64,000 nucleotides of DNA from positions 28,024,001-28,088,000 of the forward strand of contig OX597839.1 of NCBI GenBank assembly GCA_951406725.2. Reading direction: 5' to 3'. The DNA is from Octopus vulgaris. Its lineage: Eukaryota. Positions within the stretch are counted from its first letter, which is position 1; each line of letters starts with the position of its first letter. The notes under the pieces are model-generated. The model was not told the origin of the DNA and ran no database searches. It was given only the letters and a program-made list of their open reading frames with translations. Below are positions 25,975 to 34,734 of the stretch, piece by piece. Both the position numbers and the translations under genes were made by a program.

Positions 25975-26322
25975 TCGAATTGAACCAGCCAGGACCCCTG
26001 GACTGGTGGTACGTAAAAAGCACTATCCGACTCGTGGCCGATGCCAGCGCCACCTCAACTGGCTTCCGTGCCGGTGGCACGTAAAATGCACCAATCCGAC
26101 CGTGGCCGTTGCCAGCCTCGCCTGGCACCAGTGCAGGTGGCACGTAAAAAGCACCCACTACACTCACGGAGTGGTTGGCGTTAGGAAGGGCATCCAGCTG
26201 TAGAAACATTGCCAGATAAGACTGGAGCCTGGTGCAGCCTTCTGGCTTCCCAGATCCCCTGTCGAACCATCCAACCCATGCTAGCATGGAAAAACGGACG
26301 CTAAATGATGATGATGATGATG
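25975..26322 (+). mobile_element. RTE 3' UTR fragment
   Basis: Subrepeats and (GAT)n tail. Confidence 0.75.
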
Positions 26323-26620
26323 TTGTAACCACAGAAGCAGCTACAGCAGCAGCCATGTGGTTAGAATTCCACAACAAGGTGGTACCAAGAAGTTCCAGGA
26401 TAATTTAGGTTTAATAAAAAAATAACTTATTTCCCTTAGTTTTAACATCATCTCCTTCGAAACAGTCACCTTGCACAACAATATACTAGTCTCTGTGTTT
26501 CTGGCTCTTTTGGAAACTGGCCTGGAAGTTGTTTTTGTGAGGGGGTTAAGGACCCTTCTGCGATTCACTCTGGATCTTGGCAACAGTGTTAATATGGCAA
26601 CTTTTGAGCAGCATTTTCCT

Positions 26621-27040
26621 CTTATTTCTTTATTGCCCACAAGGGGCTAAACATAGAAGGGACAAACAAGAACAGACAAAGGGATTAAATCAGTTACATC
26701 AACCCCAGTGCATAACTGGTATTTAATTTATCAACCACGAAAGGATGAAAGGCAAAGTTGACCTTAGTGGAATTTGAACTCAGAACATAACGGTAGACGA
26801 AATACTTATTTCTTTACTACCCACAAGGGGCTAAACACAGAGGGGACGAACAAGGACAGACAAAGGGATTAAGTCGATTATAATCGACCCTAGTGCGTAA
26901 CTGGTACTTATTTAATCAACCCCAAAACGAGGAAAGGCAAAGTTGACCTCGGCGGAATTTGAACTCAGAACGTAACAGCAGACGAAATATGATTACGCAT
27001 TTCGCCCGGCGTGCTAACGATTCTGCCAGCTCACCGCCTT
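26621..27040 (-). mobile_element. SINE D dimer inserted in the mariner
   Basis: Same architecture as 16116-16537. Confidence 0.85.
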
Positions 27041-27249
27041 CATCTTGCAAAAGAGATGGAAGTCTGCAGGTGCTAAATCTGGTGAATAGGTCAGGTGCAG
27101 AAGTGGTGCCATGTTGTTCTTTGGTGAGAAATTCACGAGCTAGGAGAGCTCAATGACAGGGTGCTTTGTGCTCTTGAAGAGTCCAATTCTTCATGCTCCA
27201 CTGATCCGGTTGCTTCCGCTGAATGTCCTCCCTCAAACACTTCATAATA

Positions 27250-27507
27250 TTACAGTAGAAGTCTCAATTGACAGTCTTGCCCTGGGGGACAAGTTCTCAA
27301 TGCACAATACCACATTTCTGGGGGTGGGGTGATGCTCATGGCAGGTCTTCTAGGTCGCTCATCATCTTGCAGGTATGTTCTTCCACTTTTGAAGCACCTG
27401 TGCCACTCAAAACACTGCATACGACCCATTGCCTCATCACCATAAACTTGCTGAAGCAGGCTCAATGTCTCTGTAGCAGACTTCCCAAGTTTGACACAGA
27501 ATTTCAT
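27250..27507 (-). pseudogene. mariner (Mos1-like) transposase N-terminal HTH remnant
   Basis: MKFCVKLGKSATETLSLLQQVYGDEAMGRMQCFEWHRCFKSGRTYLQDDERPRRP matches the mariner HTH and D.RSGRP pattern; further fragments (YSPDLAP-like) near 27080-27100. Confidence 0.85.
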
Positions 27508-27562
27508 GTTGGTTCCTTGTTCCTGTCCATCACAAAAATCACAGACTACAACATAGATGTGA

Positions 27563-27946
27563 TGGAAGCACTCCGTCGGTTACGACGACGAGGGCTCCGG
27601 TTGACCCGATCAACGGAACAGCCTGCTCTTGAAATTACCATGTAAGTGGCTGAGCACTCCACAGACACGTGTACCCTTAACGCAGTTCTCGGGGATATTC
27701 AGCGTGACACAGAGAGTGACAAGGCCGGCCCTTTGAAATACAGGTACAACAGAAACAGGAAGTAAGAGTGAGAGAAAGTTGTGGTGAAAGAGTACAGCAG
27801 GGATCACCACCATCCCCTGCCGGAGCCTCATGGAGCTTTAGGTGTTTTCGCTCAATAAACACACACAACGCCTGGTCTGGGAATCGAAACCGCGATCCTA
27901 CGACCGCGAGTCCGCTGCCCTAACCACTGGGCCATTGTGCCTCCAC
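27563..27946 (-). mobile_element. OR1-like SINE with 15-bp TSD
   Basis: ACAA(C/T)ATAGATGTGA at 27548-27562 and 27947-27961. Confidence 0.9.
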
Positions 27947-28231
27947 ACAATATAGATGTGATCACCAGAACACAAATTTCACAACTTGCAAAGTAAACAC
28001 AGCAATGTCACTCAGCACACTTCTGCCTCATGAAGGTCACTGCTAGCTCTCACTGTGCATGCAACCGTGTGCTGCCATCTGTTGGCATGCTACAGAACTA
28101 GTTCAGGAAGATATTGATACCACCTCATATGTAACTATATGGTTCCTAGTTCAATCCCACTGCACAGCACGTTGAGTTATTTTTCAAAGTGATCTCATGA
28201 AAAAGTTCTGAGGTCCCACATTATGGCGGCA

Positions 28232-28466
28232 GTGGTGGTGGTGGTGATGGTGACAGCGTAGGTGCTAGTTGCGGCAGCAGTAGTGGTGGTGATGCTATTA
28301 CTGATGCGGTGGTGGTGGTAGTGGTGATGGTGACAGCGTAGGTGCTAGTTGCGGCGGCAGTAGTGGTGGTGATGCTATTACTGATGCGGTGGTGGTGGTA
28401 GTGGTGATGGTGACAGCGTAGGTGCTAGTTGCGGCAGCAGTAGTGGTGGTGATGCTATTACTGATG
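28232..28466. repeat. 80-bp tandem repeat, 3 copies
   Basis: TGACAGCGTA at 28251, 28331 and 28411. Confidence 0.9.
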
Positions 28467-29232
28467 ACGTGATAGACAAGGCGGCAGTGGTGGTCATGGT
28501 GGTGGTGGTGAGGATGACGATTGCAACGCTGCAGCTGCGGTTGTAGCAAATAACAAAGAAATAAAAGACATCTAATTAATTAATTGCTTCTCCACCTCTC
28601 AAGCCCCCTCCCCCCCATTCCTCCCCTCCACTCCACTCCATCATATCTTCCCCCTGGGGTGTCTACTTGTCTGACATACTTCTTACGAGTGGGGGGCAAC
28701 GGCGGCGGCCCCGGGGTGGAGGGAGCCTTTATATATATCGTTTGCTGAATCCGCTATAAATAGCAGCTAAACATCCCTTAAATCACAAACTACAGTTTTT
28801 AAATTGTATGGAAAAAAAACAGAGTCACATCAACACATGCATTCATGGGTATCCTTGAAAAGACTGGATGGCCACGAATGGAATGGCTAAACAACAACTT
28901 ATGAGTGGGAGGCTTTATATATTTATTTATTTATTTATGTTGCATTTTATCTGACATTGTTGTAACCCCAGGTCACCCTTAAGTGCCACTTCCTACTCTG
29001 CCACTAGAGAGACTAATTACACATCTGTCAGAATCTCTTTTTGTCAGGAGCCCTACGTCACCCACCCCACCCCCACCCCGGTCGTGCCCACCCATCCTCT
29101 TATTCATTCCCTCATTTCTTTTATTTATTATAGTTAACTGCACCCACATACACACCTACATGCATACCCTGGCACACATAGACATACCTATGCACACACA
29201 CACACACACATATCTATATAGATATCTATCTA

Positions 29233-29282
<50 letters not shown>

Positions 29283-29394
29283 TACACACATACATACATA
29301 CATACATACCTACATATATATATATATATGTACATACATATATATATATATATACATATATACACATACATACATATATCTATATAGATATCTA

Positions 29395-29450
<56 letters not shown>

Positions 29451-29545
29451 TACACACATACATACATACATATAGATAGATGGATATATATATATGTACA
29501 TACACACACATATATATATATACATATATACACATACATATATAC

Positions 29546-29617
<72 letters not shown>

Positions 29618-29999
29618 ATGTGTATGTATGTATGTATGTATGTATGTATATATATATATCCTTCCTCGTGCTCAGACAATTGCTGTTTTTCTTTAATTAT
29701 CAGAAGTATTTCCTCCACCTTTGTTGTCTATTGTTTTGTTTTTTTGTTTGTTTTGTTTTGTTTTGTTTTGTTTCTTTTTTCAAAGCAGGAAGAGTTTCTA
29801 GTACAGGAGTGGATTTATATTCACATAATGCCCTAATTCTCTGAAAGTGTGTTTTGAGGAACCCCCCCCCCCCGACATTCCATCAACAAAATCTGAACTC
29901 CCATATACATATATGTGTGTGTGTGTCTGTCTGTCTGTTTCTCCCCCCCCATCCCCCCTTTATTCGTGCATTTATCCTACGTTTTTAAAGTCATGTTCA

Positions 30000-30385
30000 T
30001 TGCCACTTGAACATAACTGTTCCGCAGGAAGCCATGTTACTACCATTGTAACCTTGGGAGAACGCCTCCCCCAGCTGGTTATTTGAAGCAACCTGCACCT
30101 GATATATATTTCAAGCAGGGGAGCGAACCCCTACAAATCTTCCAGCGACAGGACCACCAGACTGTACAGTTTCAACCTCTTTGTGCTCATCCTCAGTGGT
30201 GGATAGTCGTTCGCTATTGTTATGGAGTTACATGTAATTTGAACCAGTCCCTCGGGTGCTAAATACTCATAGGGGTGGTTTTCTCTGTGTACACAACTGA
30301 AGTATCCTATCTGATATTTTGATTCTCACCAACCATAGCCAGGACCACATAAATTATTCAACCCTACCTGACGCATAGCTTTTCT
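30000..30385 (-). mobile_element. Second hammerhead-bearing element, diverged relative of 14910-15324
   Basis: Hammerhead at 30154-30202 plus an ~85-nt 3' motif alignable to 15236-15320; upstream boundary approximate. Confidence 0.6.
30154..30202 (-). ncRNA. Type I hammerhead ribozyme motif, canonical core, decayed stem II
   Basis: Minus strand CCACCA-CTGAGGA-TGAGCACAAAGAGGTT-GAAA-CTGTACAG-TC-TGGTGG. Confidence 0.75.
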
Positions 30386-30734
30386 AGTACCTGATTCTAT
30401 TGAAATCCTCATCTTAATTCTTATGTATGTATGTATGTATATAAACTTTTATGTATATTTAGCAGAAGCAACAGAGTGACTCGAGGGCCAAGAGTTTTAT
30501 CTGTACATACAGGCATCTCCTTTATGGTCATGCCCCACCCAAGAGGTCTTTGTCTTGCAAATGCTGGTGGTGCACCAAATTCACTCATGCCAGTGCTGCA
30601 TGAGTGCATATACATACGTACATACATACATCCATGCATACATACATATATATACAAGTGCAGGTTGTGTGGTTAAGAAGTCTACTTTGGAACCTTATAT
30701 ATGCATCAGCCAAAGAATATTTCACAATAGAATT

Positions 30735-31165
30735 CCCAAAATGGAATAAATTTGAGTTCTGTAAGGTAAAGAGGGTGCCAGCATTTTGGATGAGGCATTA
30801 CATGGAAGAATTAAGCATTTAGAATCTCTTATCTTTTTGGCACACATTTTGCCAAAACGGAATAAATTTGTTGTGTTTGTTAAAGAGGGTCCCAGTATTT
30901 TGGGTGAGGCTCTACATGGCAAATTGAAATATGAGGAATCTCATATCTTTTTGGCACACTTATTCCCAGAACAGAATAAATTTGGGTGCTGCAAGGAAGG
31001 AGGGTCCCAACATTTTGGGTGAGGCCCCTACATGGCAGAATGGAAAATGAGGAATCTCTTATCTTTTCTGCACACTTATTTCCAAAATGGATTCCGGTAT
31101 CTTGGGTGAGACCCTACATGGAAGAAGAACAAAACATTAGGAATCCCTTATCTTCTCAACACACT
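30735..31165. repeat. ~115-bp diverged minisatellite, about 3.7 copies
   Basis: Recurring GAATAAATTTG...TACATGG...GAATCTCTTATCTTTT. Confidence 0.85.
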
Positions 31166-31603
31166 TGTTTTTTTTATTTGGAATTTATTTAACTGCTTGT
31201 TTGTTTATTTGTTTTTTAAGATGCAAATTCTGAATGCTAGTTGTCTTGAATTCAAGTGTTTTCCTTCACCACTTCCACACACACTTGCTCACACACACAC
31301 ACACTCCTACACAGTCACAAGTTTTCTGTCATCTTTAGAAACGAGGACATTATGTTTGTAAGTGTTAAATTTCAAAACAGTTTGCCATCAGAAAAGATTG
31401 AATGTTGCCCTCGTTTCAACTGCTTCATTTCTTTAAACAAATGGCACCAGAAACATATACGAACTCTACACGATTCCCCATTTACCATTTACCATTCCTC
31501 TTGCAATCCTTCACTTCTCATGCTGCCAACCTATTGTCATTTTTCTTATTTTATTTATATTTTTGAAATTGCAGAAGAATTTCACCCAAATCTGCGCATT
31601 AGC

Positions 31604-32320
31604 TTAACTCTTTGGCATTCAAACAATTCCATTAAAGGCAATGTTTATTTATTCACATTGTTTTCAAATTAATCCTGCATTATCTTGTAACTTTGAGATT
31701 TTGGTGTCATGGTTGTTTATTATTAGAATGACATTGATGGGTAGGTGTGAGAGGTTGGATCTGGCAGAGCAGGTTTCATTCTTTAGCATCCGGATTATCC
31801 TGTCAAATGTAATGCTTGTTTGTCAACATTGTTTTGAATTAATCCTGCTTTAGCTCATAGCTTTGAGATTTCAATGATGTGATTATTTATTTTTAGAAAG
31901 ACATTGTAGGGCGAGTGTGAGAAGCTGGATCTAGCTGGTCTGAACACAAAAACAGAAGATTTGGGCCCCGGGCATGGCTAGTTTAACCCTTTAGCATTCA
32001 GATTACTCTGGCAAATGTTATGGTTATTTATCGACATTGTTTACTTTTAGAATGGCATTGTAGGATAGGTGTGAAAGGTTAGATCTGACCAATTTGAGCA
32101 TAAAACAGGCAAAATATTTGGGGTCAGATATGCCCTTTAGCATTCAGATTCCTCTCTCAAATGTTATGCCTATTCATTCACATTGTTTTGAATTAATCAT
32201 GCTTAATCTTGTAGCTTTGAGATTTCAATGATGGGATTGTTTACTTTCAGGATGATATTGCAGGGTAGGTGCAAGAGGCAAGATGTGACTAGTTTGAGTA
32301 TAAAACATGTAGAATATTTA
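31604..32320 (+). mobile_element. Tandem array of four piggyBac-type MITE units
   Basis: Units start near 31604, 31781, 31983 and 32133 with CTTT(A/G)GCAT; homologous to the monomer at 37339-37566. Confidence 0.75.
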
Positions 32321-32335
32321 ATATATGTATATATA

Positions 32336-33025
32336 GATGCAGGAGTGGCTGTGTGGTAAGTAGCTTGCTTACCAGCCACATGGTTCCAGGTTCAGTCCCA
32401 CTGCGTGTCATCTTGGGCAAGTGTCTTCTACTATAGCCTCAGGCCAACCAAAGCCTTGTGAGTGGATTTGGTAGAAGGAGAATGAAAGAAGGTCACTGTG
32501 TGTGTGTGTGTGTGTGTGTGTGATGTGCATCCGTGTGTATGGTGTGTGCGTCTGTGTGTGCATGTGTAGTGTGTTGTGTGTGTGCATATGTGTGGTGTGT
32601 ATGTGTAGTGTGTGTGTTGCGGTGTGTGTGTGCATATGTGTGTGTGTGGTGTATGTCTGTGTGTGGTGTGTCTGATGTTGTGTGTGTGTGTATGGTGTAT
32701 GTGTGTGTGTCTGTGTGTGGTGTGTCTGATGTTGTGTGTGTGTAGTGTGTATGTGTGGTGTTTTATGTGTGTGTGTATGGTGTATTGTGTATGTGGTGAG
32801 TGTGATGTTGTGTGTGTCATCCTTGTCTTGATATCACATGACAGCCGTAAGTGAGCAATCGCCATCATACAAGCAGTGCCATTTGTCTCCAATCTTCCTT
32901 GTCCAGCCACAAGAAAATACTACCTTACTCGGAAACAGTCAAGGGTTGGCAACAGAAAGGTCTTCCTTAACAAAGTCTGTTGTCTGACCCATGCAAGCAT
33001 GGAAAAGTGGACGTTAATATGACAA
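32336..33025 (+). mobile_element. OK-head SINE with expanded TG tract and RTE-type tail
   Basis: OK head 32336-32495; tail ends ACCCATGCAAGCATGGAAAAGTGGACGTTAA; the same 3' half recurs at about 37000-37230. Confidence 0.65.
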
Positions 33026-33040
33026 CGAGACAGATAACCT

Positions 33041-33366
33041 GGCACTCCGTCGGTTACGACGATGAGGGTTCCAGTTGATCCGATCAATGGAACAGCGTGC
33101 TCGTGAAATTAACACGCAAGTGGCTGAGCGCTCCACAGACACACATACCCTTAAAGTAGTTCTCAGGAAGGTTCAGTATGGCACAGAACGTGACAAGGCT
33201 GGCCCCTTTTTAATTACAGGTACTGCTCATTTTAGCCAGCTGAGTGGACTGGAGCAACGTGGGGAATAAATTGTCTTGCTCAAGGCTACAATGCGCCGCT
33301 AGGAATTGAAATCACAATCGTAAGGTTGTGAGCCAAATGCCCTAGCCACTAAGCCATGCACCTTCA
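33041..33366 (-). mobile_element. CORE-like SINE with OR1-type tail
   Basis: Sister copies at 57760-58070 and 63481-63812. Confidence 0.75.
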
Positions 33367-33399
33367 CTATGAGACAGGTAGACAAACAGACAGACAGAC

Positions 33400-33660
33400 G
33401 GACGGACGGATGGATGGATGGATGGAGGGAGGGATGGATGGATGGTTGGATGGATGGATGGATGGATGGATGGTTGGATGGATGGATGGATGGATGGATG
33501 GATGGTTGGATGGATGGATGGATGGTTGGATGGATGGATGGATGGATGGATGGATGGATGGATGGATGGATGGATGGATGGATGGATGGATGGATGGATG
33601 GAGAGAGATAGATTGAAGGAAAGAAGGATGGATTGATGGATGGATGGATGAATGGATGGA
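33400..33660. repeat. (GGAT)n microsatellite
   Basis: Direct inspection. Confidence 0.95.
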
Positions 33661-34734
33661 GAGACAGACAGACAGATAGGTAGGTAATGTGTGTGTGTGT
33701 GTGTATGCAAGTATACACCCCTCTTATGATATATATTTGCATCCCTCTGGCCTAAAACATATTTAATCATTCAGTGACATTTTTTCCCACAAAGTCAGTT
33801 CTCAGTTGGATTTTTCTAGGAGCCAGATGTGGCCCCTTTTCTCAGCAGCTTCTGTTAGACAAACATTTTGCCTGTAACTCGATCTGCCCAGTCAACAACA
33901 AACATTACAAAATCAAAGACGGGGCTTTTCTTTCGGTGTGGGAGGGAGGTGGTGTGGGTTTGGAACAAGCAGGCAAGCCCCGTGTTTGATGTTTTCTTAC
34001 TCTTGTCCTTAATCTAACACATACTTGTTAATTGGCAAAAAAAAAAAAATTAAAAAATATAATAAAAAAACATGACAAAAAATTAAGAAAGGCAAAATAA
34101 GTAAATTTTCAAGCACTTCTTTCCTCTCTGAATGGGGTGAGATCTGCGACAAGTTTATATTCTGTAAAACATTTGTTTGTTTTTGTGTCCAATTTTGCCA
34201 AAAACAGCTGGTAGAGCTTGGTACAATCCCCTGGCTTGCCAGCTTCTGTCAAACCATCCACCATATCATGCTACCTGGAAAGTTGATGAGTGAATGAGTT
34301 GAGTTAACATTGCTTGAATAGATGTGGGTAAGGGCTGGGTTAACAAGGATCGGATTCATGAGAAACCCCAAGTGCAAATCCTCACTGCCTTGGGAAAGGT
34401 AAAGTCAGGGGAGTCAATCCTGACAGCAAATTAAGCAATGGATACCATTCTGGCAACTCTAAGGTAGGTGGAGCTCTCCAGCCCTGTAAGACAATCCACA
34501 TGGGAGAAGGCCACTCTAATGTAGAACCTATAGTTTGTTGGTCACCACAGGTGTCTCAGCCTGCTGAGCCTCTCTGGTCAGGCTCCAAGTCTAAAGAGAG
34601 TCAGATCGGATTGTGTGGACTGGCTCTTTTCTGCAGGCCAGAAGAAAAGCCTTACAGCATCAAGGATCAATTTATATGGGCCCTTGTGGGGAATGTTGCT
34701 CTCTTTCATGATCTTCGGACATGAAGAAACTACC

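Follow-up and report, generated by a model that had tools for sequence, protein, structure and literature searches.

The segment at 29988-30229 (minus strand) of the 64-kb stretch of Octopus vulgaris DNA analysed here (the window) is, judged from its sequence, what is left of an inserted non-LTR retrozyme, a tandem repeat that carries a hammerhead and codes for no protein. The motif that it shares with a second element in the window is the most strongly conserved stretch of a branched RNA domain predicted by our models, with compensatory changes between families. This domain is likely the platform on which the RT-endonuclease of a Penelope-like element (PLE), acting in trans, binds and starts synthesis. 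We put the probability of this reading at about 0.6. The retrozyme class and its link to PLEs were already known; the cross-family fold bracketing the start site was not found in print. For animals, the published proposals define no cis signal by which retrozymes would be recognised and reverse-transcribed.

Two hammerhead-bearing elements in the window

A type I hammerhead descriptor gave two matches in the window, with cores at 15128 (+) and 30196 (-), compared with one match in total in 30 shuffled windows, bearing out the earlier claim of a second hammerhead on the minus strand with the architecture of that at 15122-15166. The minus-strand hammerhead, belonging to a family designated F2, occupies 30154-30202 and has stem I CCACCA/TGGTGG, the core CTGAGGA (CUGAGGA in RNA) with an extra U, a stem III that is a perfect palindrome, and a predicted cut after 30160. 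Its stem II is damaged by one G-G mismatch and a G-U closing pair. By eye, stem II across 27 F2 copies is either AGC/GCT or ACC/GGT, two compensatory variants, and stem III is one of two different palindromes. Since the window stem II is a hybrid of the family variants and is mispaired, this ribozyme is probably impaired. Rfam searches of the window and four loci returned no hammerhead or other meaningful family, only microsatellite and hairpin noise.

The preliminary description placed the element at 30000-30385. We found the hammerhead element to extend over 29988-30229, and the sequence at 30225-30416 to be a different repeat on the plus strand. Read along the minus strand, the hammerhead is followed by the 5' strand of a predicted rod and the first hairpin of the branched domain (30082-30153, from the F2 family fold), and then by the shared motif (30002-30081), comprising a two-tier hairpin H1, the 5' strand of helix J and hairpins H3 and H4, as placed by the covariance models R1 and R2 and by pair counts. 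A last segment (29988-30001) ends at terminus 1 (T1), ~14 nt after H4, according to terminus clusters and R2. This F2 arm is 5'-truncated, covers ~0.67 of the ~358-nt unit, crosses the cleavage site and is identical to the family majority in 206 of 241 columns (85%). The 3' strand of helix J is missing from the DNA copy.

The plus-strand element (14913-15324) is an arm of 1.18 units of the young sister family F1. Its hammerhead (15122-15166) has the core CCGAUGA and a predicted cut after 15160, and the H1-J-H3-H4 motif was located by R1 and R2 at 15237-15317. An upstream partial repeat (14913-15018, plus strand; R2 match, 79.5 bits) reads through T1 and contains a complete helix J and hairpin H5. 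Among F1 copies, the core is either CCGAUGA or CUGAUGA (window 15128-15134; L062-L086). SINE-like repeats are very abundant in the window (14605-14895, 16116-16485, 26621-26989 and many more), some of them in 185-nt tandem pairs, and the F1 arm lies directly after one, behind a short (AT)n run.

The F1 and F2 regions (~520 nt each) aligned with a score of 136, beyond shuffled controls (mean 89.5, SD 9.3, maximum 126; 0/2000), and the shared motif matched in 56 of 85 columns with a score of 61, where the best unrelated tile of the window reached 44. The motif lies at a matching distance from the two ribozymes, as had been noted: the stretch from the cut to CCAG measures 79 nt in the F1 element and 81 nt in the F2 element. 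The proposal that similarity stops at TGGCAA was not borne out: F1 and F2 align over the whole unit with 58% global identity, above 200/200 shuffles, and the tail is homologous. Nor is there a single fixed terminus at TGGCAA; there are two termini, both further on.

A high-copy clade of motif-bearing families

The two elements had been described as subfamilies of one ribozyme-bearing mobile system, and the genome supports this: both belong to one clade of tandem, high-copy, non-coding type I hammerhead repeats with at least seven motif-bearing families, a lower bound obtained with covariance models run on local loci. R1 was the motif covariance model built from F1 and F2, and R2 a second model. 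F1 (352-nt unit) is young, with copies ~96% identical and arrays of up to 9 copies, and gave 2637 first-look candidates in the 2.8-Gb genome. F2, whose ~358-nt unit was derived from tandem overlap in partial repeats, is older (~87% identity to the majority) and gave 1047; a third family gave 2735. The models also detected families outside their training sets, namely F3 (362-nt unit, young, with a U3-A8 core; R1 match, 45.6 bits), F4 (R1, 51.9 bits), F7 (358 nt; R2, 81.4 bits), F9 (357 nt; R2, 48.7 bits) and F10 (R2, 53.3 bits). Cut-to-motif spacing was 73 to 82 nt in the families checked; for F1, F2, F3, F7 and F9, the motif begins 73 to 81 nt past the predicted cut. The F9 core is UUGACGA, and F9 and F10 (L334:6183-7476; L342:6852-7251) have inserted 3'-to-3' where Hydra-like PLE copies end in TA-rich sequence.

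At the sequence level, these repeats have features expected of retrozymes. Units of 352, 358 and 362 nt with a GC content of 0.42 to 0.46 fall within the ~170-400 nt and <50% GC of the tandem class, each unit carries a type I hammerhead (with stem II damaged in the F2 window copy), and the copies are dispersed and numerous. The longest ATG ORFs (30 to 101 aa) differ between families in strand and length, consistent with no protein coding. A PLE N-terminal coding segment was ruled out as the source of the motif, there being no ORF common to the families, and a tRNA-derived SINE was ruled out by conserved A/B boxes being absent and by ARAGORN predicting 0 genes in 6 loci.

A motif pattern gave 1136 exact matches genome-wide and 0 for the control. 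Among 30 of these that were sampled, 11 arms reached the hammerhead position and all 11 carried the core; a borderline twelfth also has the core, and 18 stop short. Conversely, among 30 loci picked by the hammerhead pattern alone, F4 was the only R1 match, so in this sample the motif goes undetected in most of the other hammerheads with a canonical core. Sixteen of these 30 loci were F5. The hammerhead pattern had 340 matches against 10 for its control, and several further hammerhead families with other 3' ends occur among the 340 (L166, L169, L177, L179, L181-L183, L187, L194). A pattern that required one H1 pair to carry a compensatory change had 0 matches, a U3-A8 pattern had 3 and revealed no new family, and a pattern scan of metagenomes had 0.

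F1, F2 and F3 are 53 to 58% identical globally, above 200/200 shuffles, and F5 is at shuffle level. The H1-H4 segment is the best conserved for F1-F2 (73%) and F1-F3 (61%); for F2-F3 it is the tail (66%, versus 57% for H1-H4). F5 and F6 had been taken by eye for motif carriers, and R2 detects neither. Both F5 (356-nt unit) and F6 (L196-L225, L176) are hammerhead retrozymes that resemble the others in predicted topology and in having two termini and in which the models detect no motif, and F5 is possibly an outgroup of the motif-bearing families.

A predicted branched RNA fold bracketing a terminus

Majority units read from the cut site were predicted to fold more stably than shuffled sequences (60 shuffles each), with z scores of -7.9 for F1, -7.4 for F2, -7.6 for F3 and -6.6 for F5. 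All four are predicted to form an interrupted rod of ~50 bp, with hammerhead helix I closing one end and a multibranch loop at the other. The loop of F1 and F2 holds a hairpin, the two-tier H1, the helix-J junction, H5 and further hairpins, and the junction itself encloses H3, H4 and a third hairpin; F3 takes the common topology at a cost of +0.9 kcal/mol. Pairwise fold tree distances (108-182) were below every control (means, 306-326; minima, 192-234). The abstract shape of F5 was exactly that of F2, which occurred in 0 of 400 shuffles, the leading part alone occurring in 4 of 400. When individual genomic copies of F7 and F9 were folded, they took up the common shape only in part.

The preliminary description had proposed stem covariation as a check. 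Over 21 genomic copies of F1 to F4 and 31 pairs, 92.3% of cells were paired (35 to 47% in slid controls). Two-sided change was seen in 13 of the 31 pairs, including 5 of the 8 pairs of helix J, and in 68 cells compared with 25.3 in shuffles, figures that represent 3 to 4 independent lineages and a pairing derived from these same sequences. Compensatory changes between families are thus present, whereas the number of pairs with two-sided change is within the shuffle range, being reached by 129 of 500. RNAalifold recovered the inner part of H1, J, H3 (2 pairs), H4 and H5, and placed the outer part of H1 in a different register. A short CTC-N5/6-GAG tail hairpin, and an 11-nt likeness of the Neptune-like PLE end to helix J, were set aside as post hoc, with alignments not above shuffles.

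The preliminary description had not recognised the motif as described. The class to which it belongs, non-LTR retrozymes, is in print; the conserved fold was not found there. Neither a conserved retrozyme fold bracketing a start site nor any cephalopod retrozyme was found in our searches of the openly readable literature, and the words ribozyme and retrozyme have 0 occurrences in the available part of PMC13282606.

Two termini and back-to-back arms

The 3' ends of arms cluster at two positions, and the 5' ends are scattered. The main F1 arms end ~4-13 nt (14/30) or ~56-63 nt (16/30) past TGGCAA. Counted from the cut, F1 termini fall at 170-174 nt in 16 of 42 arms and at 215-219 nt in 15 of 42, F2 termini at 170-174 nt in 12 of 40 and at 225-234 nt in 11 of 40, and F3 termini at 175-179 and 235-239 nt, so that terminus 2 (T2) lies 45-60 nt downstream of T1. 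The position of T1, ~14 nt after H4 and inside the junction closed by helix J, is kept in F1 to F3. Because the 3' strand of J lies beyond T1, a complete domain would need RNA that extends past T1. F5 shares the abstract shape and also has two termini without an R2 match, so the motif sequence itself is not needed for two-terminus insertion.

Back-to-back arms of the same family combined T1 with T2 in all 37 classifiable pairs (of 56), at loci that were partly selected for one terminus. Inverted arms and a one-sided tail are known for PLE insertions (PMC8557442), and for one PLE, reverse transcription in vitro begins at two internal sites in a stem-loop and depends on RNA lying 3' of these sites (PMC11167929). 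The insertions described here show the PLE-type footprint, with partial tandems, an inverted 5'-truncated arm, an optional tail and AT/TA targets, most termini abutting TA repeats.

A junction between an F2 arm and a PLE tail

The plus-strand repeat at 30225-30416 is an arm of a further family, F8, to which it is identical in 162 of 192 columns; the arm stops at the distal terminus of F8, next to a microsatellite. F8 is the 3' end, or tail, of a decayed Hydra-clade-like PLE. It meets the F2 arm 5'-to-5' at 30225-30229, the arm boundaries overlapping by 4-5 nt. A contig from an independent DNA run bridges this junction, so an assembly artefact is ruled out. F8 has a long-stem-II hammerhead, in which stem II holds ~55 nt, and termini ~45 and ~300 nt after the cut, with a tail of ~255 nt between them (L265, L287, L273). 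F8 twin arms combined proximal and distal ends in 11 of 11 classifiable pairs (of 16). In one contiguous copy, the end of the endonuclease lies ~1.35 kb upstream of the hammerhead. This endonuclease has a C-terminal GIY-YIG domain and a CxCX5C linker and lacks CCHH, in agreement with the Hydra criteria of PMC8557442; its Pfam score was 22.4 bits against a cut-off of 22.6. The DKT and RW motifs of the RT were seen only in a relative at L323, with ~48% endonuclease identity.

We consider the F2/F8 junction probably a single two-template insertion. The 5' ends abut with only the short overlap, no remainder of F2 or F8 was found in 26000-34000 (~4 kb on each side), the two arms are equally diverged (each 84-85% identical to its own family), and their ends obey the T1-plus-distal rule. 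The other two mixed junctions are 3'-to-3' and lie at microsatellites. A less favoured yet serious alternative is that F2 and F8 inserted independently and were made adjacent by deletion or target deletion, and for this speak the single occurrence of the chimera among the 68 back-to-back junctions at the loci examined, the age of both families, the high density of repeats and the 3' flank of F2, which is not a TA repeat.

Search for helper PLEs

An autonomous RT-encoding element carrying the motif had been anticipated, and none was present among the Neptune- and Hydra-like PLE copies searched. Young Neptune-like PLEs in the genome have a 781-aa frame with RT and GIY-YIG domains, a minimal hammerhead and two termini ~38 nt apart. 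Their clade was assigned from the cysteine linker (compare PMC8557442). The young copies at L121-L131 also show an upstream ORF or exon, repeated CCAAT/CRE-like boxes in the 3' region and a U3-A8 minimal hammerhead. Hydra-like PLEs are abundant (12,327 candidates, with ORFs of up to 1091 aa). Pfam finds no family in their intact ORFs, so Pfam-based screens miss this clade. The intact ~1090-aa ORFs (L323:3400-6672 (+), L324) bear an asparagine-rich insertion. One GIY-YIG match (L108:1501-1650) resembles an exon of a host SLX1-type nuclease rather than a PLE.

R1 and R2 were run over ~30 loci selected by GIY-YIG (nearly all Neptune-like, including 20 extended regions) and over 50 Hydra-like loci, and in both sets found only separate retrozyme insertions. 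Alignments of pLTR or tail regions of the sampled Neptune- and Hydra-like elements with retrozyme units were at shuffle level, with one marginal exception among 54 comparisons (F8 versus F1 scored 35, the highest of 60 shuffles 30.5). An origin of the units as solo pLTRs or direct pLTR derivatives finds no support, there being no significant match to the Neptune- or Hydra-like pLTRs sampled.

Proposed mechanism and alternatives

In the mechanism that we propose, tandem units would be transcribed and cut by the hammerhead into ~355-nt monomers able to circularise, as in the published class. The monomer is predicted to fold into the rod closed by helix I and then the multibranch domain, to which the PLE protein would bind before nicking AT-rich DNA. 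cDNA synthesis would start at two internal sites matching the observed termini, T1 inside the J-closed junction and T2 downstream, and the two DNA ends would be primed one from each, giving the back-to-back arms observed. As the F2 window arm crosses the cleavage site, its template was circular or an uncleaved multimer. The second arm at this locus was probably copied from Hydra-clade PLE RNA, to judge from the one junction, which makes the Hydra clade a candidate helper. The preliminary suggestion that the motif is an RT recognition or priming site is plausible, on indirect evidence: the fold brackets T1, and 18 of the 30 motif-selected matches keep the motif without the ribozyme.

The fold may instead be kept for what the RNA circle itself needs (ligation, stability, evasion of dsRNA sensing, export), the termini falling within it because an enzyme would start at whatever loop is accessible at a set distance. 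We regard this as unlikely, though it would explain why pairing is kept over the whole unit, rod included, why PLE pLTRs lack the motif and why F5 inserts alike without a detectable one, and published retrozyme circles are highly self-paired (PMC7229834). What it explains less well is that sequence conservation peaks directly upstream of and around T1, and that T1 keeps its constant distance from H4 in F1 to F3. Very improbable is a viroid-like replicon copied from RNA to RNA by a host polymerase, in which rod and branched domain would serve replication and the genomic arrays would be by-products; units of 352-362 nt with a rod-like fold (z about -7) and no shared ORF are compatible with it, but the antisense hammerhead core is absent in 4 of 4 units and the insertion footprints match those of PLEs.

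Schistosome hammerhead repeats have an internal Pol III promoter, and a comparison with the box consensus by eye shows a loose likeness of the H1 5' end to an A box and of the H4 loop to a B box. The motif as an internal Pol III promoter is nevertheless hardly credible, because the box positions differ among F1, F2 and F3 while the base pairs are kept, and ARAGORN found no genes in the loci noted above.

Counting against the platform reading are the lack of the motif in the autonomous PLE copies searched, the small number of lineages behind the covariation and the two-terminus insertion of F5 without an R2 match. Families of only 53 to 58% identity nevertheless share a covarying fold around a fixed start site, which supplies a defined RNA to work with and single helices to mutate. 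The genome itself encodes enzymes to try, in its intact Neptune-like (781-aa frame) and Hydra-like (1091-aa) ORFs, and a suitable in vitro assay has already been described. For PLEs in general, the mixed junction suggests that one insertion may draw its two arms from different RNAs. A more far-reaching and tentative version, which we hold to be doubtful, is that retrozymes are a long-lived clade of ~355-nt circular RNAs rather than pLTR fragments, with their own conserved adaptor fold that would recruit a Hydra-clade PLE RT-endonuclease. This enzyme would act as a dimer able to hold two RNAs, each half priming one DNA end from a different start site, and the locus would be the fossil of a two-template event. 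If true, the locus would identify the clade of the helper and give a portable cis element for trans-mobilisation.

Comparison with known systems

The closest known systems are the metazoan non-LTR retrozymes (Cervera and de la Pena 2020, PMC7229834), which likewise consist of non-coding ~350-nt units in tandem that carry a type I hammerhead, have less than 50% GC and self-pair as monomers. Mussel units are 350-390 bp, and PLEs were proposed there as helpers. Circles were demonstrated for those retrozymes, whereas for the families described here they are predicted, and the available part of that paper describes no cross-family structural domain and no fixed termini and makes no mention of octopus. 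In print, the animal PLE-retrozyme link is proposed from co-occurrence and pLTR similarity (PMC7229834; 10.64898/2026.07.22.740005). Li, Clavereau and Pollet (2026, 10.64898/2026.07.22.740005) similarly regard retrozymes as non-autonomous PLE derivatives mobilised by PLEs. As far as the accessible text goes, 24 of their 57 Xenopus families match annotated repeats, nearly all of them PLE pLTRs, and no molluscs were sampled. We did not find such pLTR homology, which points to structural mimicry or to a lost or unsampled parent.

The hammerheads also resemble the minimal hammerheads of PLEs (Cervera and de la Pena 2014, PMC4209133), which have a palindromic helix III for dimer cleavage and an unpaired base 5' of stem II. 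The U3-A8 core variant found in those ribozymes occurs in F3 as well. F1 and F2 differ from them in a longer helix III and in lying within tandem non-coding units rather than pLTRs.

For the insertion pattern, the nearest parallel is the PAc Poseidon PLE (Frangieh et al. 2024, PMC11167929). There too, RT starts at two internal sites, within a stem-loop that follows the hammerhead; the tail is optional, targets are AT-rich and the protein is predicted to form a dimer. That element is autonomous, with its sites inside the ORF and a tail of 30-40 nt, whereas the retrozyme RNA is non-coding and has T1 at ~170 nt from the cut and a 45-60 nt tail. F8 and its intact relatives, which differ from the retrozymes in their long-stem-II hammerheads, tails of ~100-260 nt and lack of the retrozyme motif, are like the Hydra-clade PLEs (Craig et al. 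2021, PMC8557442) in the C-terminal GIY-YIG domain, the CxCX5C linker, the missing CCHH, (TA)n targets and the presence of a hammerhead, and the intact Hydra-like ORF shares the DKT and RW motifs with that clade.
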